Source: Squalus acanthias (taxonomy: Eukaryota). Taken from it: a stretch of DNA of 64,000 bases. Shown piece by piece: positions 1 to 16,132 of this stretch. The stretch is from NCBI GenBank assembly GCA_030390025.1, contig JASTWF010000033.1, positions 808,001 to 872,000 on the forward strand, in the 5' to 3' direction. The stretch's first letter is position 1. Every line of letters starts with the position of its first letter. The position numbers were made by a program, and so were the translations under genes. The notes under the pieces are model-generated. The model worked only from the letters and a program-made list of their open reading frames with translations, had not been told where the DNA came from and searched no databases.

Positions 1-317
1 GTCTAGAAATCTATCTATCGCCTTCTTAAATATATTCAGTGACTTGGCCTCCGCAGCCTTCTGTGGTAGAGAATTCCAGTGGTTCACCACACTCTGTGTG
101 AATACATTTCTCCTCATCTCAGTCCTAAATGTCCTACCCCGTATCCTGAGACTGCGACCCCTCGTTCTAGATCCCCTCAGCCAGGGGAAACATCCTCCCT
201 GCATTCAATCTGTCTAGCCCTGTCAGAATTTTATACGTTTCAATGACATCCCCTCTAATCCTTCTAAAGTCTCTTGAATACAGACCTAGTCGACCCAAAC
301 TCTTCTCATATGACAGT
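1..317 (-). mobile_element. CR1-type LINE fragment, ORF2 C-terminal region
   Basis: Reverse complement translates to LSYEKSLGRLGLYSRDFRRIRGDVIETYKILTGLDR...FTQSVVNHWNSLPQK...IFKKAIDRFL, the characteristic CR1 ORF2 C-terminus. Runs off the window edge. Confidence 0.88.
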
Positions 318-319
318 GC

Positions 320-1430
320 TGAAGACGTGTGATCCAGAACTTGCTACGCCTATATGGAAGGTGTTCCATTAGAGCTACAACCATGGCAACTACCCAACAA
401 AATGGAAAATGGCCCGTTATATCCTGTCCACAAAGAAACAGGAAAAATCCAACCTGAGCAATTGCCGCCCCTTGAGTGTACTCTCAGTTATCAGCACGAT
501 GATTGAAGGTGTCATCGACAGTGCGATCAAGCAGCACTTACTCACCAATAACCTGCACACCGAAGCTCAGTTTGGATTCCGCCAAGACCACGCGGCTCCA
601 GACTTAGTCCAAACATGGAACACATAACTGAATTCCAGAGGGGAGGGAGAGTGACTGCCCTTGACATCAAGGCAGCATTTGACCGTTTGAAGCATCAAGG
701 AGCCCGAGTAAAACTGATGTCAACGGGAATCAAGGGAAATCATACCGAGCACAACGTTGGCTGGTTTCGGTTATTGGAGGCCCAACATCTCAGACTCAGG
801 ACATCGCTGCAGGAGTTCCTCAGGGCAGTGTCCTCGGCCCAACCATCCTCAGCTGCTTCATCAATAAACTTCCCTCCATAATAAGGTCAGAAGTCGGGAT
901 GTTCACTGATGATTGCCATTCACAACTCCTCAGATAATGACGGAGTACATGCCCGAATGCAACAACACCTGGAAGATATTAAGGCTTGGTCTGACAAGTG
1001 GCAAGTAAAATTCGCGCCATACATGTACCACGCAATGAATATCTCCCACAACAGACAGTATAACCACCGCCCCTTGACATTCAATGTTATTACCATAGCC
1101 GAATCCCCACCATTAATATCCATTGACCAGAAACTTAACTGGACCTGCCATATAAATACTGCAGTTGCAAGAGCAGGTTAGAGCCTGGGTATTCTGCGGC
1201 AAGTGACTTACATTCTGACTCCCCAAAGCCTTTCCACCATCGAATGGCACAAGTCAGGAGTGTGATGGGATATTCATCACTTGCCTCAATGAGTGCAGCT
1301 CCAACAACACTCAAGAAGCTCGACACCATCCAGGAGAAAGCATCCCGCTTGATCGGTACCTTAACTAGCACCTTTAACATTCACTCCCTCCACGATCAAC
1401 GCACCGTGGTTGCAGTGTGTATCATCTACC
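320..1430 (+). mobile_element. Decayed non-LTR retrotransposon (CR1/L2 group) reverse transcriptase fragment
   Basis: Frameshifted RT motifs across ORFs 409-627, 615-881, 909-1181 and 1244-1474: NCRPLSVLSVIS, QFGFRQDH, ALDIKAAFDRL, GVPQGSVLGP (nt ~812-842), GMFTDDC, WSDKWQVKF, IDQKLNWTCHI. Confidence 0.9.
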
Positions 1431-1580
1431 GGGAAACAGAGTTAACGTTTCAGGTCGATCGTTTTGCATCATAGAGATGTAACAGGTTTTAAGCAAGTAC
1501 AGAGCCACGGAGAGTTGGGGGGGGGGGGGGGGGGACTAAAATGAAGCTCTGTAACTGGGTTAAAGGCAGGAGTGATCTGA
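1431..1580 (+). repeat. Interspersed repeat fragment, possibly Penelope-like terminus, with G18 run
   Basis: GAAACAGAGTTAACGTTTCAGGTCGA is similar to the copy at ~9770-9797 (AAAACAAAGTTAACGTTCCATGTTGA). Family assignment is from memory of shark repeats only. Confidence 0.4.
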
Positions 1581-1584
1581 ATCT

Positions 1585-2368
1585 GTCCAATTTCGCACGG
1601 TGGTTGTGCCACACTACATGGTGGAGTGTGTTCTCTGTGTGAAGACGGGATTTCTTCTCCACAAACATTGTGCGGTGGTCACTCCTGCCAATTCAGTCAT
1701 GGAGAGTTGCTACTGGGTCTTTTTTAGGACGAGTTCAAGTAGGTTTTTCCCTCGTGTTGGAACTCTCACCACCTGCCGCATGCTCAGTCTGGCAGCTATA
1801 TCCTTCAGGATTCGGCCAGCTCAGTCAGTAGTGGTGCTACCGAGCCTCTTTAAGTGATGGGCATTGAACTCCCCCACCCAGAGTATATTCTGTGCCCTGT
1901 GGTATTTAACAGGGAGGAGTAATAATTCATCAGCTGAGGTAGGTGGTAAACTGACGGAGGTTTCTTTGGTGATGGAGGAGTCTGGGACATTGGCTGAAAG
2001 GTTAGATTCTGTGAGTATGACTGTGTTAGGCTGTTGTTTGACGAGTCTGTGGACAGCTCTCCCAATTTTGGCACATGTCCCCAGATGTCAGTGAGTAGGA
2101 TCTTACATGGTTGACTGGGCTGGGCGTGCCATTGTCGTGTCCTAATCTAATGCCTAGTAGCCTGTCCCATTTTATTCTATTTTTGCAGCGGTTTGATACA
2201 ACTGATTGGATCGTTAGGCCATTTGTAAGGGCAACATATTTCTGCGGGTCTGGAGTCACATATAGGACAGAGCAGGTAAGTATGGCATGTTTCCTTCCAT
2301 AAGGGGCATTAGTGAACCGGATGTGTTTACGACAATTTGATAGATTCATGGCCACCAATAAAAATATT
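1585..2368 (-). mobile_element. 5' part of a LINE: APE endonuclease remnant plus 5' UTR
   Basis: Minus strand ~1735-1897 reads RAQNILWVGEFNAHHLKRLGSTTTD*AGRILKDIAARLSMRQVVRVPTRGKNLLELV (APE GDFN and D-LV motifs), with VPKLGELS near the ORF start. The 5' UTR continues to the TIR insertion at 2369. Confidence 0.8.
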
Positions 2369-3111
2369 GGCCCAGAAATTGATCTCGCTCTGTTCCCACG
2401 GGGGTAAGCCTTCCCCGCGATGTCTCACCTCGCTTGTGCTTTTTCAGATCCAGCTCGCACGAACTTGATGTTCTGGACAGCTGCTGTGCAGTGCTTGCGT
2501 ATCCCACCGGCGTAGTGAATTCGTGCGAGCTGTGGGATCACGTGACTCAGTTAGAGCCAATGGCAGCACACCATCTTCCATTCATAAGTTTCACAGACCT
2601 GCTGTGAAATCTATGAATCTTACACCCCCCGAAAATAACAGCTAAACCTCAATTAAATTTAAAAAAAAACCATCACATTAATAAAATAAGTATAGTTAAT
2701 TAAATTAACCATTTTAAATAAAAAATTAAATTTTTGAAAAAATTTAAAAACTTTTAAAAAGTTATAAAAATAAACTTACCTGTCTTTAAAGTCTCTAAAA
2801 AAGATATACCTGTTAAAAAAAATTCAAAAAAATACTTAATTCACTACTTACCTTCTTAAAAGTGGGTCTTACTCCTCCTTTTTACATTTCCAAAATCTTC
2901 AGTACTTACCTGCGCGTCCAAAGCATGAAGTGCACAGCGTGCGCGCAGCCTGTAGCGCGCACGCGATGCACCGAGGACCCGCCCCCTTTTCAGAAGAGCA
3001 ATTGCCGGTTTTCAGCGCATGCGCAGGGCATGCAGAAAACCGGCAATTGGAGTGGGAATACGCGAGAGTACGCAGTGCGTACTCTCGCGTCCCGGGATCA
3101 ATTTTCGGCCC
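2369..3111. mobile_element. Non-autonomous DNA transposon (MITE), PIF/Harbinger-like
   Basis: Left end GGCCCAGAAATTGATC versus reverse complement of right end GGGCCGAAAATTGATC (13/16 identical). ATT on both sides (2366-2368, 3112-3114) fits a 3-bp TSD. AT-rich core ~2640-2860, GC/CpG-rich subterminal arms, no coding capacity. Confidence 0.72.
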
Positions 3112-3114
3112 ATT

Positions 3115-3250
3115 AACTTTATATTCCAGATTTATTGAATTAATTGCATTTACAAAATGCCACGGAGAAATTTGACCTCAGGTCTCCGGATAATTAGCCC
3201 AGGCCTCTGGATTTCTATGCCAGAAACATCACCACTATGCTAACGTAATC
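3115..3250 (-). mobile_element. tRNA-derived (SINE-like) head, continuation of the element interrupted by the MITE
   Basis: Minus strand TAGCATAGTGGTGATGTTTCTGGCATAGAAATCCAGAGGCCTGGGCTAAT...GAGGTCAAATTTCTCCGTGGCA has degenerate Pol III A-box and B-box spacing and resembles the shark HE1-type SINE head. Confidence 0.6.
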
Positions 3251-3409
3251 TGCTGCTGTTTCTGATAACGTTGATGTTTCCAATCATCGACAGTACTCAT
3301 CAATTTATATATCGTAATCTATTGACTATCCCAATCCATTGAGAGATCCTAGTCCATTTACTTTCCTCATCCATTGATATGACACAATCCATTGTGTCTC
3401 CCACTCCAC

Positions 3410-4290
3410 TCAATTTGCAACAGGCCTTTGATAAGCTACCACATCGTAGACTGGAGACTAAGAATCGCGCATGTGGAGTCAGGGGACAAGTAGCAGAATT
3501 GAAAACAAACTGGCTACAAAAGAAACAGAGAGTGGGGGTTCCTCAGACTGGCCGCAGGTCGAAAGTGACATTGAACAATGGTCGGTGCTGGGACCACTGT
3601 GTTCATCATTTGCACAATTTTCTTGGACTCAATAATCTGAAGTGCACTGTCAAATTTGCGGTTGGCACCAAATTGGCAGCTTTTGTTAATGCTGAAGAAT
3701 ACTGCGACCACATACAATAAGATGGTAACAAACTTACAGAATGGGAGTGTAAATGGCAATTTAATTTCAATACAAAAATGCGTGTGGTGTTTTATTTTGC
3801 GGGGAGGAATAAGTTGGCCACATACTCCAACAGTAAATATGTATTAGACTTGTATTGAACTTCGGGTAGATCACACTTGATGTACTGTGCACAGTTTGGA
3901 CTCAATTATATAGAGACAGTGGAGAAGGTGCAAACAAGACTGGACTTATGGCAGGTGGTGAGAAAAACAACACGAGGGAAAAATCTACTTGACTGAGAGG
4001 TTTTAACTGTCAAGAACGACTGACCAGGCAGGGCACCTTTTCTCTCGAAAAGAGAAGGCTGAGGGGCGACAGAATGGAGAATCCAGAATTATCAGGGGGT
4101 AGAGGTAGAGGACATATTTATGATTGTGGGGTATCCGAAATAGTTGTGAAACATATAAGATAGTCACTAATAAATCCAGTAGGAATTCAGGATTAACTCT
4201 TTCCCCCGAAATTGTTTCGAATGTGGAACTCGCTACCACATGAGTATGTTGAGGGGAATATCATTAATGCATTTTAAGGGAAGCTAGAAC
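3410..4290 (+). mobile_element. Heavily decayed CR1 LINE (RT to 3' region)
   Basis: LQQAFDKLPHRRL, RACGVRGQVA, NWLQKKQRV, VKFAVGTKL (KFADDTKL), later TGGAACTCGCTACCA (WNSLP). Many deletions and frameshifts. Confidence 0.8.
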
Positions 4291-4359
4291 AGTAACGAAT
4301 ACCAATCAGAACCCCAGCTCCGTGTTGCGGAAGATCAATTCAGAAACTAACATTGCAAA

Positions 4360-4436
4360 TGTCTGACATCAGGGTATGACATCTGGAATGTGGCACCTGG
4401 TGGGAGACATCTGGAGTGTGACACCTGGAGAGGTAT
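4360..4436. repeat. Short degenerate tandem repeat (~14-bp unit GTGTGACATCTGGA, ~5 copies)
   Basis: TGACATCAGG, TGACATCTGG, TGGCACCTGG, AGACATCTGG and TGACACCTGG recur at ~13-14 bp spacing. Confidence 0.6.
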
Positions 4437-4587
4437 GTCCGGAGTCACTGATGATGCGTGGAGGTGTTGCGGCGATCCAGCGTGAATCACTCGGTCGTAT
4501 AAACCGCAGAGCGCGTGTTCATCCCCTGTCCGTGCCTCTGTTAGTTTTCAATATTTAAGGCGATGTTTAAGCTGCACCTCCTCAAAG

Positions 4588-4742
4588 ACAATACATCCTT
4601 CCTGAGGAGCGGTGCCCTAAACCGAATGAAGCACTCCAGATAGGGTCTCACCAAGCCTTGTTACAACTGAAACATAACTTGCTCCTCTTAGTATTCCAGC
4701 CCGCTTCAGATAAAGGCCAACATTCCTTCAGCGTTTTTGAAT
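4588..4742 (-). mobile_element. CR1 LINE fragment
   Basis: Minus strand reads approximately MLAFI..GLEY....VMFQLx.ALVRPYLECFIRFRAPLLRKDVL, matching the CR1 LVRPHLEY...WAP...KD region. Confidence 0.7.
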
Positions 4743-5084
4743 GGACCTCGAGCAACTTACTCATCAAATATTAAATCGAATGGGATCCTGCGGGCCACTC
4801 ACAACGTTTATTTTAGCGACTTTGTAGTGAAGTAGGGTATGTTAGTGTGTGAGATTTCCATAGTAAAATTTTAGGAACAGGGCAAGTCTGCTTTGTATTA
4901 TATACAGGCCTGAGATATAGGCTGTTCGATCCTGAATTGAAATATGTAAACCACTGAAACTGTTGACCTCAGCACCCGAAGTTTAATTACTATTTTTATG
5001 TTAACAAATCCGATGACAAACACACAAAGATCCCAGGAATATCCGGGACCTGAATGTGTGCGAGATACTGCTCTTAATCCACTC

Positions 5085-5235
5085 GATAAGGTGGACCATG
5101 TCGAGCTGCTTCACTTTGTCCAGAACAATAGAACCAGAGGACACGACCTGAGATTGAAGGGGGTAAATTCAAAACTAATCTCTGGAAACATTATTTCAGT
5201 GATCGACTGTCTATCTATGGAACAGGCTTCCTTCC
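5085..5235 (+). mobile_element. CR1 LINE 3' fragment
   Basis: LDKVDHVELLHFVQNNRTRGHDLRLKG followed by TGGAACAGGCTTCC (WNRLP), the CR1 RTRGH...WN.LP signature. Confidence 0.65.
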
Positions 5236-5244
5236 TAATCATCA

Positions 5245-5695
5245 TAATTAAAACTAGAGGACAGGGGAGTTCAGGGGAACACGGGCAGCAAAATTACAAA
5301 TAGAATAAAGGGGATATCAGGGGAACACTGTAAATATTTAATTAGAAATAGAGGACAGGGGAATATGGCAACTGATATTAGAAATACGGACCGGCGGAAT
5401 ACTTCATTTAGTAGTAGGGGGCAGGGGAAGACAGCAACTGTTCAATTAGAAATAGAGGACAAGGGGATTCTGGGTAATAAATTAACTGTCTAATTAGAAA
5501 TAGAATAAAAGGAGGCATGTGGTAACACAGTAAATAACTGTTTTGTTTAGAACTAGGAGACTGGGGAGATAGTAACTGTTTATGTAGAAATAGAGGAGAG
5601 GGGAATGTCAGGGAAACACAGTAACTGTTTAATTAGAAGTACAAAAACACAAGGGAATACAACAACTGGTTAATTAGAAACGCGGGACGGGAAAT
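5245..5695. repeat. Degenerate minisatellite, ~35-45 bp unit (AATTAGAAATAGAGGACAGGGGAAT...GTAACTGTTT), ~11 copies
   Basis: The core TTAGAAATAGAGGAC and spacer AACTGTT recur throughout the interval. Confidence 0.75.
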
Positions 5696-6145
5696 TACAA
5701 CCACATCAGATTGAATGTGACCCGGTAATGTAATGGTTAATTATTCAAGCCTTTGGTTTTTATTTTACATGTTATTTTTGGATGATGTGGTTGATTACAC
5801 ATCCCCTTCTCAGGGTTGTATCTGGGTGCAGAACATCGCCGACTGATGGAAATAAAACCTGTGCCTTCTGCCTGACTCCTGCCTTAAATACGGTTGGCCG
5901 TCGGAATCCAGTTAAGTGAAAATGTGTCTCTTACACAGAACTGCCTGCAATTAATGAGCAATTTCCCAGAAGCTGGATGCCAGCCGGACTGGCAGAGCCC
6001 GGGCTCCACGGGGCCCTTCAACCAAGAGGATTTTGGTTTTGGAGAACGTCTGGGTAAAGTGGAACGTTAAAGAGTGACGGGTAAAGCGTGCTCTTAATCA
6101 CAGTTAATAACTGAAGCCCATTTACCATTGAAGTATATAGGCTAT

Positions 6146-6421
6146 TGTCAGCACAAGCTTTTCAATAAGGTTCTTGAACATTGGAGTGAGGTGCCATAGG
6201 TTTATTAAACACATAGTACATGCAGTAGTACTTACACACACACTCGAAAGGTAAAAATTAGAACCACACCTGATGGTGGTTGGTGTGGTGACCGAAACAT
6301 GTCACAGTCCTGAGCTCAGTATCGGAGGCCTTTACCAAACCGAATACTCATTCAAAACTGTTAGTTTTTATTCATTTTTCTTACTCCCGGTACTTGAAAA
6401 TCCTCACAATTCTGCATTACA
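6146..6421 (-). mobile_element. Possible LTR remnant downstream of the env-like frame
   Basis: On the minus strand AATAAA (plus TTTATT at ~6201-6206) lies ~55 nt before a terminal ...GTGCTGACA (6146). A candidate start TGTAATGCA is at 6421. No clear polypurine tract or second LTR seen. Confidence 0.25.
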
Positions 6422-6715
6422 TAACTATATCAAAGTTAAAATAAAACTCCACGTAAAGATAAGTTAATTGATTTATCTGAAAGATAGTTTCACTTTTATG
6501 ATTGCAATGGTACCAAGTGAAACCTTTAATAGTGAGACTGTCTGTCTCTGTATCTAAAGTACTATGTGAAAATGATGATGGATGTCCAGATGTTTTCCTT
6601 TGCAAAACGAACTCTCTTCCCAAACTGTTACCAAAGGAAGAAAGTTTCCTGGAATTGATGAATCTGTTTGCAATGATATGTGTTTAATTAAATAGCTTAT
6701 TACTTCATCCTGAAA

Positions 6716-7475
6716 CTAACCATTGCGGCAGGGTGAGCTCTGGCCCATTAGCCCAGCGGTACTATAAATAGAATTGTACTTCCGGCTTAACAGGAAAATG
6801 CTGAAGATTAACATTACTACAATAGAAAGAAAAAAAGAGAAACCAACACAGTATAATATTAGCGTACGTTAGGCTAGGCTGATTAACCCTTTCCTTATAG
6901 CACCCTCTTTGCTGACGTTAGAGTATTTCAGGTCAACACTAAACCATATCTCCTCAGCATCATAGATATATCTCGGCCTATTCTATTGCTGAGATCTCCA
7001 TCCATTGGCTTGACACATGTTCTCACTCTCCAGAGACACATTAACCATTTCATGTAGTACTGTTGTCTGCGTGACTGACCATGTTTTGAATTCGTTTTCC
7101 AGAGTAACTTCATCACGCATAGCGCATGCTGGTCGATTCATGTAAAACGCGTCACTTCTGCAAACAGAGCGATATCCCAGGATTTTACAGTGCCAGACAT
7201 CCGATGCAAGCCATTCCTGCCCCTTCTGTCTATCTATCGATGGATCGGGGGTCGGTCGGTGTTTGATTAGGATCGCCCTTGCAGTGTCCCGATGTTGCGC
7301 GCATTTGCCAGGCTATCAAGTATATTACTTTCTTTCTTCATCTAAAGCAAGGACACAACCATCTCCAAGAGAATACTAGAAATTAATCAACTTCACTACA
7401 GTGTCCTGACTTTCACTGGACTGTACATTGATACTAGACTCATGTCTTTTGGCGAGTCCTACCCAGGTGGTTTAC
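6716..7475 (-). pseudogene. Decayed viral envelope/class I fusion glycoprotein-like ORF (C-terminal half with TM anchor)
   Basis: Manual translation: ...ILLEMVVSLL*MKKESNILDSLANARNIGTLQG/(frameshift ~7275)/ILIKHRPTPDPSIDRQKGQEWLASDVWHCKILGYRSVCRSDAFYMNRPACAMRDEVTLENEFKTWSVTQTTVLHEMVNVSLESENMCQANGWRSQQ*NRPRYIYDAEEIWFSVDLKYSNVSKEGAIRKGLISLA*RTLILYCVGFSFFLSIVVMLIFSIFLLSRKYNSIYSTAGLMGQSSPCRNG*. Cys cluster, N-glycosylation sequons (NVS twice), ~25-aa hydrophobic TM, basic stop-transfer and short tail. Confidence 0.5.
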
Positions 7476-7800
7476 AATAAGAAGGGATGGGACAGGATAG
7501 ATGGAAGCGAAACTTTCCGTTATTTTAAGGATCAAGATCTAACGGTGAGAGATAAAATGATAAATGTAAGAGATTTAGAACTAAAGGTAAGAGAAGCCTC
7601 TTTACATGGAGAGTTGTGAGACTGTGGATATAACGGAGGCAGAAGTTATATCAATATTGAAGATTAAATTGCATATGAGGCTGAATGTAAATAGGTTGAA
7701 GGGATGTTGAGACCGTGTGGGTGAAGTCATTGGAACTATTTGCTCGGGTGGAGGGTAAAAGTCGACAAGGACTGGTTGGGTCGAATGGACTGTTATAACA
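7476..7800 (+). mobile_element. CR1 LINE 3' end
   Basis: KGWDRIDG, then AGAGTTGTGAGACTGTGG, ending in the CR1-type tail GGACTGGTTGGGTCGAATGGACTGTT. It abuts the 5' side of the env-like remnant. Confidence 0.7.
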
Positions 7801-8364
7801 TTCCAACATTGTGATGACCAGTTGTGATTTTCAGTAAATATCTGTGAACAAAGATGTCTAATGCCACATTGACGATTCAAGTTCTTACTGTCTCCTTCAT
7901 TAGACACTGGTCAGGAGACAGGGCCCCGTTCTATCGATCCAGGAGACAATGGAAGGCGGAGTTTGATGGGGAGACCAGCGCCTGCACCATTCATACCGAG
8001 ATTACAGAATTACAGATAACCACCATTGTAGCACATTGTTTCTACACTAATGGAAACTTTTTCTGTTAATTAAACTGAGCGACTCATTCCAGTACCTGCG
8101 CTGTGAAGCAGTTAACGCTGACGCCCACATGTTCTACTCCACTGTTGAAGCTCAATCATGACCGTTCTCTTTGAATCTTGAGCGGGAAGTGCGCTGTTTT
8201 AGCAGGAATTGATTATGTTCACCTTGGAAAGCAGTAGACATCAAACACACGGCACAAAGTGGGAGAAATGTTTTCTGATACCTGTTCATTCTCACAACAA
8301 CAATCTGCTTTCGTCCAACAGAAAGACAGACATTCTAAAATAGAACACGGGCTATAATTTAACT

Positions 8365-9296
8365 CTAGTTAGGACAGGAAGCTTTGGTTTGACTTTTCAT
8401 TTTTTTAACCAATATCCGAATAAATGCCCAAGGAGATTTCAACAGCTTCTTCAGCTCTTCCCTGAATTTAGTTTGTGTAGCTGCATAAATACACGTGTTT
8501 GTACAGGAGCTCAAATACATCAGCAGATATCCGGTTAGACTGATGATGTAAGCAGGATCTATGTAATCGCCTCGATGATACACGGCTAGGGTGTTAACTA
8601 TAAAACTCACGGCAGACGTCAGCCACAACAATACAAAACTGCCCGACACTGTGAACAGTAAAATTATGGATTTCCTTCGGCTCTCCATCTCTGGATCGCT
8701 GTTATTCTCACTGCTGATACCCGGGAGTCCCCTGCGGGCTCTACTGGCCACTAAAATACGCCTGACTGTAAAACAATTAAACAGTAATATCAAAAGAAAA
8801 GGAAGACATGGGTTTAAAATGTTTTGTAAGCGGAAGTAGGCTACACCTGCAGGTGATGAATAAAAGTCCGCACTGGGGCGGAATCCCCACGGAACATTGT
8901 TGATTATTTGTTTATGTTCATATGCAAACAAATAGGGGATGTTCTCTAAATAAACCAGGACAGAGACCGTTGTTATAACCGCGGCCGCAGTTCTCACGGT
9001 GCAATAATTTGTTTTAAACTTCTGACAACATATAGCAATAAAACGGTCAAATGCGAAGGAGACGGTAAACCACACAGACATATCCAGGTTGGTACAAGAC
9101 ATGTACATCATGAACTTACAAACGGCAGTGTAGGACCGGAATGAATATGGGAAGTGTTTAATCAAAATATGATATACGATTACATTGACGATCATGACCA
9201 GTAGATGTGCTGTTGCCATGGCCACCATGTAGACAGAGATACATTTGGAAAGGCCGCATTTTCCTCTGGAGAGAATCAACATTGTCGATAGGTTCG
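8365..9296 (-). CDS. GPR139-like class A (rhodopsin-family) GPCR, exon 2 (end of TM1 to stop)
   Basis: Acceptor CCCTCTTTCTTACAG|CG at 9297/9296. 932 nt in phase with exon 1. Encodes (A)NLSTMLILSRGKCGLSKC, MATAHLL, SVWFTVSFAFDRFIAICC, PCLPFLLILLFN, DPEMESRRKSIILLF, SSCTNTCIY, TQTKFREELK; TAG at 8365-8367. Confidence 0.92.
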
Positions 9297-9715
9297 CTGT
9301 AAGAAAGAGGGACAAGTGTAAGTAATGGGGAAACTCGGATAAAGCTTACAGCGTATTGTGAGGAGATGAACCGATGTGCTACTACTGAAGATTATGCACA
9401 ATAGACCTTTTCAAACGAAAGTAATCATTAAACACTCAATATCGAGGGACTGAGAATGTGCCGTCCTTCCAGCACACTTCAGTCAGAGAGTGTCAAGTTG
9501 GTGGGTAGGGGTTGGTGCTGGGAGGGTCGCTCGTATTCAGTATCGGCAATGGTAACGGATAGCAACCCCCAACACCACTGACACTGATGGCTGAACGGAG
9601 GGGAATGTTGACTTTGGGCGACGGTGTAAAACTGCCGACTCCGGATCAGCCGTTCATGATACATCTCTTCCGAATCAATCTCCATCGCTATCGGCACTGA
9701 CACTATATTCATCCA

Positions 9716-9800
9716 TAAAAACATAAAATTCTCGAAATACTCAGCAGGATAAGCATTATCTGTGGAGAGGAAAACAAAGTTAACGTTCCATGTTGAAACC
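9716..9800 (+). repeat. Interspersed repeat (Penelope-like terminus) in the GPCR intron
   Basis: AAAACATAAAATTCTCGAAATACTCAGCAGGATAAGCATTATCTGTGGAGAGGAAAACAAAGTTAACGTTCCATGTTGA resembles an abundant chondrichthyan repeat and matches 1431-1460. Confidence 0.5.
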
Positions 9801-10773
9801 ATTCGTTTGAAATCCATTGAGGCTCCATTCACACTTTAACGGTACGGTCCAGGCCAAGCCGCAGTAACTCGCAGGGACGGTACAGTTACAGATTAAAGTC
9901 CCTTAAAGGGCAATCTTGAATGGTTCTGTAACTTGTTAATTTTCACAGTCAATAAAGAAGCGGATTCCCTTACATACACAAAAACACACATTCCATTGCA
10001 GTGTGGAGCGCTGAAACCATCCCGCCATGAGGCTGGGACCATGTGATGCACGGAGCCAATTTCATGAGTTACTACAGCGGCCCCAGGGAGCAATCGATGG
10101 AATTTTACATTTAATCTCATCGGTTTAATTGGCGAGGGGGATCTCGGGATCGGCATCAGATGTCAGCTATATTCAACATAATTTAAAAGCAATTACTGGA
10201 AAGATATGAATTTAAATAATACATTCAGCTGTGCCACAAACACTCGATGTAGGTCGAAACTCTGCGCTTTTTCTATTTATAATGGATCGAGGAATCTGCT
10301 CGGTAACAGAGCGGGAGCTGGTGGAGCCGCGAAGGTACTTTGCAGCCGAGGGGAGGGGAGCAGCTCCCTGAGCGGCAATTATTGCTACAAATATCATTCA
10401 CAGTCCTTTGATGGGTGGAGGTGGCTGCAGTTCAAGGAATTATCAACCTTAAGTAGACAGGAAACAACGGGACAGATGAAATGATTACCATGGACAGTAA
10501 GCAACACATTCTTTAGTGATCTATGTCCTATTGGAGTGGCCGGGGAATCAGCCTCGCACACCCTCAGTAGACGGAGCGAAGTTGAGCTTCCGGTGGCCAC
10601 GATCGAGCGACCAGAACAGGCCTCAGCGGCCGCGCGGACTGGTCGGTTTCACGCTGATATTCACCGACTGATCCCGCTGGATCAATGAATCTGCAATGAG
10701 GACATGCTCGGAATCTGTTACATTAACACTGAGATAGTCAACAGTTATTAGACAACACAATACATTGACTTAC

Positions 10774-10843
10774 CGGGAGCCCCAAAGGTTGCGAGAACTG
10801 GGTAGTAAATTTGCTTTATCTGTAGAATTGTTGGCAGTTCCAT
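10774..10843 (-). CDS. GPR139-like GPCR, exon 1 (start to TM1)
   Basis: ATG at 10843; MELPTILQIKQIYYPVLATFGAP + G, then donor GTAAGT at 10773. 70 + 932 = 1002 nt, giving a 333-aa protein with junction FGAP-ANL that restores N1.50 in TM1. Too short for the ORF track. Confidence 0.9.
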
Positions 10844-11029
10844 TTACAGTGGGAAAATTGTACGGAAAGTAATCCCAGAGGGAATTTGCTCTGCGCATGG
10901 GCCCTGAACGCTGAATGGAACATCCCTCCTGAACTCTGCGTTAGGTTCTTGAGTTTTCAAATCCATTCTCAGAAAATTTTACTCATCCATGGCATAAGCT
11001 AAATTTGTATTTTTACTTTAATGATGCCA

Positions 11030-12640
11030 AGTGATGACTCCCCTTTAATATTACTGGAAATGATTTATCGCAAACAATACTGGCGATGATTCATCGCTAA
11101 CATTACCAGTGATGACTCCTCTCTAACATTGCTGGCGGTGACTCTACTCTAATATTAACGGCGATGAGGCTACGCTGACTTTAATGCTGGTGATCGTATT
11201 CTACCGTTACTGGTTTTGATCCTATTCTACCATTACTGGTGGTGATTATATTCTAACATTACTGCTGGTAACACAACACAAAAAAAATTGTTGAGGACAC
11301 ACTTTAACATTATTGCTGGTTAAGTTACTCTAAAATTACAGGTGTTGATCCCACTTGTAATTGCTGGGGATGACCCTACTCCAACATAATTGTGGTGACC
11401 ATACTCTAACATTACTGTTCCTTGGCCCTACTCTAACATTACTCTGGTAACATTACACTAACATTACTGGTGGTGACCCTACTCTAACATTACTGGCGGC
11501 GACCCTACTCAAAAATTACTGGCGGTGAACCTATCTAACATTACAGGTTGTGACCGTACTGTAATATTACTGGTGGGGGCTTTACGTTAACATTATTGGT
11601 AGTGACACTACTCTAACATTAATGGTTGTGACACGATACTAACATTACTGGTGGTCACCCTACTCAAAAATAACTGGCGGTGAACCTATCTAACATTACA
11701 GGGAGTGACTATGCTGTAATATTACTGGTGGGGGTTCTACGATAACATTATTGGTAGTGACTCTACTCTAACATTACTGGTGGTGATCCTAATCTAACAT
11801 TACTGGTGGTTACCCTAATCTATCATGACTGGTGGTGACTCTACTCTAACATTAATGGCGGCACCCCTCCTCTAACATTACTGGTGGTGACCCTACTCTA
11901 ACAGTAATGGTGGTGACTCTACACTAACATTACTGGTGGTGAACATACGTTAACATTAACGGTGGTGACCCTACTCAAACATTACTGGTGGTGACTCTAC
12001 TATAACATTACTGGTGGTGAACCTACTCTAACATTACTGGTGGTGACTCTACTCTAACATTACTGTTGGTGAGACTACACTAACATTACTGCTGGTGACC
12101 CTACCTAACATTAATGGTGGTGACCCTACTCTAAAATTAATGGTGGTGCCCCTACTCTGACATTACTGGTGGTGGCACTACGCTCACGTTTTTGGTGGCA
12201 ACTCTACTCTCACATTACTGGTGGTGACTATAATCTAACATTACTGCTGGTGACCCTACTCTAACATTACTGTTGGTGACTTCACTCTGACATTACTGTT
12301 GGTGACACTTCTGCAACATTTCTGGTGGTGACTCTACTCTCACATTAGTAGTGGTGACCCTACTCTAACATTAATGGTGGTGACTCTACTATAACATTAA
12401 TGATGGTGACTCTACTCTAATATTACTGGTGGTGACCCTACACTAACATTACTGGCGTTGACCCTACTCTAACATTAATGGTGGTGACCCTACTCTAACA
12501 TTACTGGTGGCGACTCTACTCTATCATTCCTGGTGTTGACCCTACTCTAACATTACTGGAGGCGACTCTACTCTATCATTACTGGTGGTGATCCTACTCT
12601 AACATTACTGGTAGTGAACCTACTCTAAAATTACTCTAAC
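11030..12640. repeat. 26-bp minisatellite (CTAACATTACTGGTGGTGACCCTACT), ~60 diverged copies
   Basis: Period 26 measured directly (AACATTA at 12004 and 12030). More degenerate at 11030-11400. Confidence 0.95.
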
Positions 12641-12914
12641 AGACAGTCTTAAGTTTAACGTGCCCTAAATTTCCTGTGTTCCATTTTCTTGCTTTCTATA
12701 TTTACTGTCTCCTTTTCTCTGCAATTATTGTTTCCTATTATTCTGGATTTACTTTTTCCTCGTGCTTACTGTATCCTAAGTTTCCTTATTCGTGTTCCCT
12801 GTGTTTCCATTGCTTCCTGTGATAGCTCAAGTCCAAAGAAAGTTTCAGGGAACCAAAGTACTAATTCAAAGGGAGCAACAAGTGACCCCAAATAAACAGG
12901 GTCTCCTGAGTCAG

Positions 12915-13022
12915 AATTACATAGAAATTACAACATGGAATCGGCCCAACCATTCCGTATAGTTGATAATTCACTCCAAATTACATGTGCCCACCTGGTT
13001 CCCATATCACTTTATCCCACTT
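12915..13022 (-). mobile_element. CR1-type LINE 3' tail fragment
   Basis: ACATAGAAATTACAACATGGAATCGGCCCAACCATTCC...TTCCCATATCACTTTATCCC resembles an antisense CR1 tail. Confidence 0.5.
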
Positions 13023-13024
13023 TA

Positions 13025-13310
13025 CTTTTTTTATTCGTTTATTGGATGTGGGCGTCGCTGGCGAGGCCTGCATTTATTGCCCATCCCTAATTGGCCTTGA
13101 GAAGGTTGTGGTGAGCCGCATTCTTGAACCGCTGCAGTCCTTGTGGTGAAGGTACTCCCACAGTACTGTTAGTAGGCAGTTCCAGGATTTTGACCCAGCG
13201 ACGATGAAGGATCGACGATATACTTCTATGTCAGGATGGTGTGTGACTTGGAGGGGAACTTGGAGAAGGTGGTTTTCCCATGCGCCTGCTAACCTAGGTG
13301 GAGGATGTCG
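13025..13310 (-). mobile_element. 3' end of a LINE (probably the family at 320-1430)
   Basis: Minus strand encodes ...YRRSFIVAGSKSWNCL (ORF2 C-terminus) and ends ...CAATTAGGGATGGGCAATAAATGCAGGCCTCGCCAGCGACGCCCACATCCAATAAACGAATAAAAAAAA, with an A-rich tail. Confidence 0.75.
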
Positions 13311-13469
13311 CGTGCTCAACCACCTATCTAATCTATTCATAAACGTTGACATTTTTAAACATCATTCAATGATGTTGCCATTTACTGCGGATCAAGGTTG
13401 CCATGAGAAGGTGATTTGAATCAACAATCTATGTTGCCGGAGACTTCCCGACGGGACGTTAATTCGATG

Positions 13470-13755
13470 CCTTCTCTGACTTCTTGGGTGGACGTTAAAG
13501 ATCCCATGGCATTATTGAGAAGAAGAGCAGTGGAATTCTCCCCGACGATCTCGCCAATATTTAACCTCAAACAACAACATCTAAACAGATTATCTATTGA
13601 TTATTACAGTGTGGGAGTGTGCTGTGCCCTAATTGGCTACCACATGTATTACACTACAACAGTGACCGCTCCTCACAAGCACTGAATTGGCTGTAAATTG
13701 CTTCGTGATATCCTGAGCTCGTGAAAGGCGCTCTATCAATTCAAGTCTTCCTTTG
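13470..13755 (+). mobile_element. DeuSINE (SacSINE1/AmnSINE1-like) Deu domain and L2-type tail
   Basis: GTGGACGTTAAAGATCCCATGGCA...GAAGAAGAGCAG...GCCAATATTT...AACAGATTATCT...AATTGGCT...ACAACAGTGAC...ATTGGCTGTAAA...GTGAAAGGCGCTCTATCAATTCAAGTCTT follows the Deu-domain consensus order. Confidence 0.8.
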
Positions 13756-14127
13756 AAAAGCATATAACAGAAAACTGCTCTCGGATTGTGCAGTACAGAT
13801 TAAGCAGGGAGCATTTAATGAATGGTGATGTGACTGAGGAGAGCGGGCACATTGAGAGCTGTGCAGCAAGCAAACAAACACACAGAGGACTGAGCTACAA
13901 AGCCCAATAAACATGACGTTTCAGGCTCTAATGCTGCAGCTATGATGTGCTCCAGTCAGGACTGACCCTGGGTATTGACCTTATTTCTTGTCACTCATGT
14001 ACAAAGGGAGCATCCACTCCTAGCAGCCGGATAGAGGGAGGCCGCTTGGCCGCGATCCAGAGTCAGAGAGCTCGGCCACGAGGAAAGTGCAGCGAAAAGT
14101 CACATTGTTAAAACTTTATGTCGGTGC

Positions 14128-14612
14128 AAGAACATAGAAGTATAGGAAAAGACCAGCTGGCCCAGCAATCCTGCTTCCACAGCCTTGTGGCTTCAGTGCG
14201 TTCAACCTCCATGTGATCTCCTGGGAACGTTGAACTACTAGGAAAGAAACAGGGCCAATAACGGGTGAAAATCCTCCCGGACATGCTCAGGCGAATGAAA
14301 CCATTCCAGTAGATCACAGGGGCCTTGCGCACATTAATAGTTAAACCATTTACATTTAATATGAAACGATCGCTGGCCCAGCCAAGACCAGTCCAGCTCC
14401 CTGCTGAAGGGATGCAGAGAGTCAGCACACACCGCACAAACTGGCAACGCAATCCAAACGCTCACTGCTCTCTGGGAAAGCCGAGCACCAGCCTATTCCT
14501 ACGTTAGTGTAATTTAAATGCTTGTCGCCTGGTTCTCTTCATCCTCTCAAACTGAAATAACCTATCATTCGACACTCTTTCCTTGGCTTTCATTATTTTA
14601 TATAACTCTCAG
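14128..14612 (-). mobile_element. Old CR1-like fragments
   Basis: AAGAACATAGAAG...AAAAGACCAGCTGGCCCAGCAA (antisense tail-like) and CTGGTTCTC...CATTATTTTATATAACTC (antisense of YKIMK...RTR). Highly decayed. Confidence 0.4.
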
Positions 14613-15600
14613 GATGCATCTAAGACTGTGGACCTGTGGAGTTAGGCAAGGTACGAGGGGTGGTAAGCAAGAAATATCTTAATCAGGTTTAAGGGTACAG
14701 AGCGGTAAAGGACCAGAGATTGGACCATGTGTCAATGCTTCATACTTGTGCTGACTGATCACTGAATTGATATTCTGGGTCGGGATCGGCGGAAGATTGT
14801 TGAACCGTTCAAGGAGCAGCTAGAGGCAGTGATGGGATTGTGGGTCCCAGTGAATTGATCTGCTCGATGGACCGAACGTCATGCCTCATCCGGACTTATC
14901 TGAGTGAACCAGGGCTTCGCCAGAGTTGTGAGCGCGCAAGGAAGAGGTTGAACATTAACAAGAGAATCGGTAGTTAGTGGCACTAAGCGGTTAACAAGGG
15001 ACTTGAATATAACTAGTTAATTAATAAGGCAGCACCTCTAAGGATTAGCCATATTTTTCTTATTGATTGATCTTAACTAGTTGTTGTTTTTGACAGAGGA
15101 CTGAGCTACATTAATAGATTCATAATATGTTTGTTATAGTTACTTTCAGACTGTACATGGAAGGTTTTTTCGTGGATTGTAGTTTAGCTATTTCATTAGA
15201 CACCGAGAGTTTTACCAAGTCTTCAAATATAATAAGTTACTAAATTAAAGTTGGCAGCGAGGAGTGAATACATATTTGATTAAAACTGACATTAAACTGA
15301 GCATTGAATCCTTAACAACAGACTCCGTTTTAACTACTTCACTTAAACAGAACACTAAGGGAGTTGACCCGAGCCAGCTGCTGGATTGGGGTGTGCGGCG
15401 ATTTAAAGATCCTGTTGGACCGGGGCCCAGAGGGATTAAACAGATGGTGTGAGCAGGCTCGCACACACGGTCTGTCACTCGCACATGGATTTACAACTCC
15501 TGCTGCTTTACATAACGGGCCATTATTATGGTCTGGTCAGCTGTGAGCCTGCTTGTCCCAGGCCAGGCTGAGGGATTCTGCGGAGCTCCCAGCACGGTCA

Positions 15601-15715
15601 ATGTCAGGAAGGCTGAGGCTACGATCCGCTTCAAACCCCTTGGAGAGTGTGAGCCTCTCCATTAATGAGAAGATCCTCAGGGAATGTCAGTTGCTCTACA
15701 CGGACTCAAAGCACG
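15601..15715 (+). CDS. Probable first coding exon of an uncharacterised dynamin/EHD-like P-loop GTPase gene (resembles zebrafish si:dkey-98f17.5-type proteins)
   Basis: Acceptor CTTGTCCCAG| at 15561, ATG 15601, MSGRLRLRSASNPLESVSLSINEKILRECQLLYTDSKH + G, donor |GTAAGA at 15716. The E.IL.EC..LY.D...G motif resembles, from memory, the N-terminus preceding the GNHSAGKSS P-loop in this family. Downstream exons are not in the window. Confidence 0.6.
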
Positions 15716-16132
15716 GTAAGACAATGGGGGCAAGCGCTTTAGGGACAGTATTACGATATATTTTCAACATATATTTGCAACACATGACCCAGTCCCTCCC
15801 CCGCGTGTGTGAAAGGCAGCAACTGAGAGCTTTATTTCGGTGTTTCTGAGTCACTCGGCTCTCGGGTTTCACTCTGCCTGAGTTGGCACCAATTCAACTT
15901 TATGATGCTGCTTTCAGCAGGACTTTGTCAGAACACACTCTCAGAGCGCTGTTTGTTTGAGACATTTTTCTTTCAAGAATATTTATATATATCTATAATG
16001 ATTCAATCATGTATCTGTAAATTTTAAAGCGCGAGCTCTGTGATTTACTAAAGCTTTAAGGATTCTTGTTGCTCACAATGCACTGGCTCCATCTGGTCTG
16101 GGCACAGCAGGGCAGCAGAAAGAGGAAGGATC

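Follow-up and report, generated by a model that had tools for sequence, protein, structure and literature searches.

A broken reading frame behind a receptor gene of Squalus acanthias, candidate remnant of a fusion-protein-type env gene

A broken minus-strand reading frame that lies behind an intact receptor gene of Squalus acanthias appears, on balance, to be what remains of the 3′ half of an F-type (paramyxovirus-fusion-like) env gene of an old LTR retroelement. This reading draws on an independent membrane anchor, on motifs that are collinear with those of known envelope proteins and fall in the expected half of Env, and on the lack of a cellular relative among the proteins searched. The fragment is dead and partial, and its identity as env is unproven; its copies are likely to have arisen as it was carried along with the neighbouring receptor gene. 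The features described below, with their positions in the window (the whole stretch of 64,000 nucleotides that was analysed, of which about 16.1 kb is not satellite), are collected in Table 1.

Table 1. Features of the fragment and its surroundings, in window coordinates.
Positions	Strand	Feature	Remarks
6146..6420	-	Candidate 3′ LTR or poly(A) region	AATAAA at 6372 and 6206; limits approximate
6716..7312	-	Broken reading frame, candidate 3′ part of F-type env	198 codons, stops 6985 and 6871
6716..6787	-	Basic stop-transfer SRK, 23-residue tail and stop	
6788..6862	-	Membrane-spanning segment	25 codons
6911..6919	-	NVS sequon 2	
7034..7042	-	NVS sequon 1	
7124..7215	-	W-L-x6-C, VC-x-S-x2-F, C cluster	Translation, Env comparison
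7279..7341	-	Second-frame piece, L-x4-NIG-x3-G	Collinear with Cys cluster
7328..7443	-	Upstream piece with YSLG	Overlaps alternative second-frame alignment
7476..7790	+	5′-truncated LINE 3′ piece adjoining the fragment	Outer limits approximate
8365..9296	-	Exon 2 of intact rhodopsin-family receptor	
10774..10843	-	Exon 1 of receptor	
11033..12637	.	26-bp tandem array upstream of receptor	

Genomic context

The two-exon receptor model (10843-10774 joined to 9296-8365) encodes 333 residues with one terminal stop and matches the profile 7tm_1 (E=5e-18); we take the receptor to be GPR139-like. It lies on the same strand as the fragment and ends 0.9 kb upstream, and the fragment may lie in its 3′ untranslated region; the first ATTAAA 3′ of the broken frame is at 6688 and the first AATAAA at 6372. 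Between receptor and fragment sits a LINE piece, presumably of CR1 type, of which 7513-7669 match another LINE piece at 34-190 of the window (E=7e-6). The earlier note on this DNA had the 5′ side of the fragment cut by a CR1 tail near 7476; a LINE piece does adjoin there, but because it lies on the plus strand, the fragment meets its 5′-truncated end and not its tail. Besides the piece at 34-190, decayed LINE pieces were seen at 315-1430 and 3343-4300, both judged by eye.

An arrangement of gag-pol-env between two LTRs was not found in the window; a fragment could have lost these parts. No remnant of gag or pol was detected by tblastn in 1-16130, and neither a second copy of 5900-6720 nor an LTR pair was seen in the window. 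Rfam models gave 0 matches in 5000-9000.

Several other repeats share the window. From 16133 onward there is a G-rich tandem array with a 28-bp unit, and a GC content of 0.46 with a GC skew of about 0.85 extends to 64000, making up a satellite of ~48 kb; the repeat finder covered this array up to 17000, and the remainder is assigned by composition. A degenerate repeat of ~46 bp with many joints among copies occupies 5243-5680. Two adjacent short palindromes (2999-3049, 83%; 3060-3090, 97%) lie in a GC-rich stretch beside an A-rich tract, and the pair (2999-3090) may form the core of a small non-autonomous DNA element.

Anatomy of the broken reading frame

Read on the minus strand from 7312 to the stop at 6718-6716, the frame comprises 198 codons interrupted by two internal stops (6985 and 6871), which bears out the ~185 codons with two stops that had been claimed from the sequence. 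The accompanying claim that the list of open reading frames held only wrong-frame pieces is incorrect, since a 109-codon part in the right frame is listed at 6983-7312. The open length of the frame is by itself weak evidence, because the six frames of 1-16100 contain, apart from the receptor gene, six further starts of comparable runs (at least 197 codons with at most two stops). Upstream of the main frame, the reading frame probably switches twice, near 7335 and near 7275, of which only the second had been noticed before; if the YSLG match discussed below is due to chance, there is a single frame change instead. Positions 7378-7330 align to the Env profile in two frames, so one of the two alignments there must be a chance one.

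The type I membrane architecture described in the earlier note holds: the Cys cluster (7192-7124 on the minus strand), two NVS sequons, the hydrophobic segment, SRK and a short tail are all present as claimed, except that the tail counts 23 residues in place of ~25. The part of the frame that is present contains neither a signal peptide nor a cleavage site or fusion peptide; for this reason, and because of the stops, the fragment would make no protein today. A single-sequence fold model of the fragment has a mean pLDDT of 48 and is confident for the anchor alone.

The explanation that competes most directly is that this is non-coding 3′ flank of the receptor, with a T-rich tract that looks like a membrane segment and with motifs that were picked out of 16 kb as chance matches. 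This is rather unlikely, and the evidence from the frame itself falls on both sides. Open runs of such length are common, as counted above, and the membrane segment is 55% T; among 20000 base shuffles of its 75 nt, 989 equalled its best 19-mer hydropathy, the most readily reached of the three measures applied. The other two measures describe the bias of T among codon positions (over the 25 codons, 19 at position 2, 12 at position 1 and 10 at position 3), which was reached by 114 and 461 of the 20000 shuffles and argues against a mere T-rich tract. So does the placement of the segment: with a 19-residue Kyte-Doolittle mean of 2.67, it is the sole stop-free 19-mer with a mean of at least 2.5 in the six frames of 1-16100, and it stands at the end of the 198-codon run, ahead of basic residues.

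Standard database searches

Standard searches with the fragment were negative throughout, in keeping with a non-coding flank. Against lokiretrovirus-type Env, neither BLASTP nor hmmsearch --max (Env profiles against the fragment) gave anything significant, and hhalign gave P=0.14; tblastn of the reference proteins introduced below (gag, pol and env of metagenome locus L003 and 117 Env proteins) against 1-16130 reached a best E of 0.03, in scattered matches. Pfam assigns no envelope family to the fragment at E up to 10, the fusion glycoprotein family PF00523 included; the sole matches, DUF4133 (E=0.18) and DUF7747 (E=0.078), are not significant. PDB searches by sequence matched no solved F structure; their top rows were PI3K-gamma, through a short Pro-rich word (E 0.22 or worse), and a transporter helix appeared at E=5.5, both of which were set aside. 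Viral contigs searched with the fragment, with a motif primer and with the Env alignment A2 gave no match.

The architecture is not specific to viruses, so it would also be seen if a type I membrane protein of the cell had left a decayed retrocopy or exon here. Such an origin is improbable: phmmer found no cellular relative among 1.84 billion representatives, where the only two matches were artefacts of summed repeats in Ig-like or Cna-B bacterial-type surface proteins; word-index protein searches found nothing related among 186 longer and 35 near-length candidates; and the fragment has no likeness to the neighbouring receptor from which it might otherwise have been derived.

Comparison with lokiretrovirus-type Env

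The reference set began with lokiretrovirus Env proteins from eight of the 23 places in the supplement of PMC7947760. A primer from one Env motif led to five metagenome loci, one of which (L003) carries gag, pol and env, and a wider search with these Env sequences produced 117 Env proteins, from teleosts where an organism is named. Alignment A2 contains 30 of these sequences and yields a profile of 581 columns, while 41 Env sequences (P0004-P0048 less four fused models) were used for local profiles. The L003 element (L003:2-8636) is an apparently intact gag-pol-env element of lokiretrovirus type, with a pol of 1745 codons and two RNase H-type domains, and is probably host DNA in the metagenome sample.

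The teleost reference family is F-like, as the predicted model of the P0004 Env confirms by matching the F proteins of RSV and hPIV3 (E about 1e-10). By sequence, the L003 Env matches PF00523 weakly even though it is intact (E=0.002; 16.8 bits against a cut-off of 29.8), and A2 retrieves an hPIV3-type F from PDB sequences at E=0.5 only. The link between the fragment and the F proteins of RSV and hPIV3 is accordingly indirect, running through the reference fold of the lokiretrovirus-type Env, and the fragment itself matches them directly in neither Pfam nor PDB sequences.

Eleven residues that are near-invariant in A2 occur in the window as well (Y271, S272, L273, G274, N310, G312, L339, C346, C356, S358 and F361), and over the 51 codons between N310 and F361 the register shifts by no more than 4 nt. 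Given the whole profile and BLOSUM45-type scoring, a frameshift-aware aligner chose as best the register that had been found by eye (YSLG, NIG, WL-x6-C, VC-x-S-x2-F) at both settings; this scoring was adopted after BLOSUM62-type and other searches had come out negative. The best alignment uses five frame changes, some of them surely spurious, and falls within the half of Env in front of the anchor. The earlier note, which had proposed a motif order like that of F-like Env proteins, came close to the near-invariant order of lokiretrovirus-type Env, but no standard search makes the resemblance significant.

The score of this alignment, 48.8, was reached by 19 of 1997, 4 of 726, 11 of 788 and 7 of 810 codon shuffles, by 7 of 674 profile shuffles, and by 2 of 74 and 3 of 142 real windows, that is, by ~1% of shuffles and 2-3% of real windows overall. 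Part of it stems from bases inside the flanking LINE piece; confined to 6716-7475, the score is 41.9, which 126 of 1997 shuffles and 78 of 1177 frame-preserving shuffles reached. At the second BLOSUM45 setting, 1 of 80 shuffles but 6 of 74 real windows did as well. BLOSUM62-type scoring gave nothing significant, with 31, 64 and 56 of 100 shuffles as good at the three gap settings used, although on a wider stretch this aligner did pick the YSLG segment, and the main frame alone was equalled by 202 of 1658 shuffles and took a different register. The YSLG piece is the top ungapped match to the Env profile at 31.3 half-bits, the next, a chance one, scoring 31.2. A match to IP-x-Y-x2-P at 7488-7468 was dropped as support because it lies mostly within the LINE piece.

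These results bear on the possibility of a non-coding flank in both directions. The reversed Env profile scores 53.2 on the same DNA, above the real profile, and p is about 0.07 within the limits of 6716-7475; the register of the motifs, in turn, is collinear over 51 codons. Judged from sequence, the likeness to lokiretrovirus-type Env is borderline (p about 0.01-0.07 under one scoring), and because several scoring settings were tried, it is to be considered suggestive and not shown.

Set beside lokiretrovirus Env (PMC7947760, with the teleost proteins L003 Env and P0004-P0120), the fragment presents YSLG, N[IV]G, L-x6-C, C-x-S-x2-F and C in the same order and with the same spacing. It also has the C-terminal membrane anchor with a short tail that is a feature of lokiretrovirus Env, and two sequons between Cys cluster and anchor, compared with one or two in the six lokiretrovirus-type Env checked. 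The cysteines are spaced -9/0/+12 in the fragment, compared with -10/0/+14 in five and -10/0/+16 in one of the six, and the distance from Cys cluster to anchor is 100 residues as against 162-168. Lokiretroviruses further differ in possessing a front half of Env with signal peptide, RXKR site, fusion peptide and coiled coil, as well as gag, pol and an LTR pair, all absent from the locus of the fragment, and the likeness of the two proteins lies in the twilight zone, where standard tools do not find it significant. In the supplementary table of PMC7947760, the rows for four cartilaginous-fish orders read 0/6 genomes, if its columns mean what the legend of Fig. 1A suggests. An F-type env alone does not identify its carrier, because the errantiviruses, a Ty3/gypsy family of LTR elements surveyed in invertebrates in the part of the report available (10.1101/2023.10.26.564294), also carry an F-type Env.

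F-type genes might also arrive by a non-retroviral route, if the mRNA of a paramyxovirus-like F were copied by LINE machinery; this would explain the adjoining LINE piece and suits a locus with no gag, pol or LTR pair nearby. Paramyxovirus-like elements that arose via cellular retroelements have been reported in sharks, but the genes named for them in the portion of the report at hand do not include F (10.1101/2023.10.17.562709). This origin is quite improbable, given that the matched motifs are those of lokiretrovirus-type Env, that neither PF00523 nor a solved F is matched, and that the LINE piece lies on the opposite strand.

Gamma-type Env is marked by CX6CC and an immunosuppressive segment before the anchor. 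In agreement with the earlier note, the fragment does not show these marks: it has no CX6CC before the anchor and no Pfam envelope family at the threshold given above, which makes an envelope remnant of another class (gamma/epsilon-type or gB-type) very improbable, even though epsilon-like and snakehead-like endogenous retroviruses are known from sharks, as far as the available part of PMC4422223 goes.

Copies in other sequencing runs

Sixteen sequencing runs were listed as related to 6150-7470; 13 contain part of it and none contains half of its words. No RNA run is among those listed as containing the stretch, which has no bearing on its expression. Copies were examined in four of the 16, which come from four studies and bear four organism labels. 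In all four, each of the 30 bins of 5000-9500 is covered, with many contigs per position; it is this number of contigs, and not read depth, by which the multi-copy state was judged. At position 7374, for example, 31, 12, 10 and 16 contigs in the respective runs carry one common difference from the window. The earlier note had named the lack of a profile match to viral fusion proteins and of multi-copy homologues linked to pol or LTRs as grounds against its reading; no profile match is significant and no such link was found, but the stretch is indeed multi-copy, apparently as part of a unit with the receptor gene.

At least four contigs in three runs cross the junction at 7476 (7303-7793 in X1, 7344-7790 in X7, 6841-7993 and 7077-7855 in X11), and therefore the fragment and the LINE piece were already joined when the copies multiplied. 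None of the 12 best-supported indels (there are 99 more) falls at the frame changes, which fits frame breaks that are common to the copies. Among the contigs listed (there are 10020 further pieces), none joins the fragment to receptor coding sequence; co-duplication of the two is what we infer from their arrangement. Because the fragment lies 0.9 kb behind an intact GPR139-like gene, its copies likely result from duplication of the receptor and not from viral spread.

Two local irregularities were observed among the runs. In a 1269-base contig of run X1, only bases 244-493 match the window (6833-7088), with a long flank on either side of them; the contig may come from a copy in different surroundings or from a relative that has suffered less deletion. 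At 7021-7067, a depth spike with loose ends in several runs suggests a short match to a separate high-copy repeat.

Origin and significance

If the fragment is the remnant of an F-type env, its history would comprise three steps. An element bearing an env related to lokiretrovirus-type Env would have integrated behind an ancestral receptor gene. The element would then have decayed, so that a LINE piece now stands in place of the front half and the part from Cys cluster to membrane is ~60 residues shorter than in teleost Env. Finally, receptor, LINE piece and fragment would have been duplicated together. While the element was alive, its protein would have formed trimers as a fusion protein of class I, and what is left of it would correspond to the anchor, the Cys-rich beta domain and the last part of the helical core. 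It probably worked like lokiretrovirus Env or F; membership of the lokiretroviruses requires LTRs and a reverse transcriptase that groups with theirs, as sister to other retroviruses, and both are absent here.

A bolder proposal, possible but doubtful, is that the fragment represents a much older and very divergent lineage of retroviruses with F-type envelopes in cartilaginous fish, which was fixed behind the receptor ahead of the divergence of several species and spread together with the receptor family, and whose LTR remnant may supply the poly(A) signal of the receptors.

In the literature surveyed by title and the beginning of the abstract, no paper reports an F-type env in sharks, and none of those listed deals with the receptor expansion. 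F-type envelopes on retrovirus-like elements bear on the origin of retroviral envelopes, as discussed in the available part of PMC7947760. A fragment common to several species labels would set a lower bound on the age of such elements in cartilaginous fish, and would also mark the history of the expanded receptor family.
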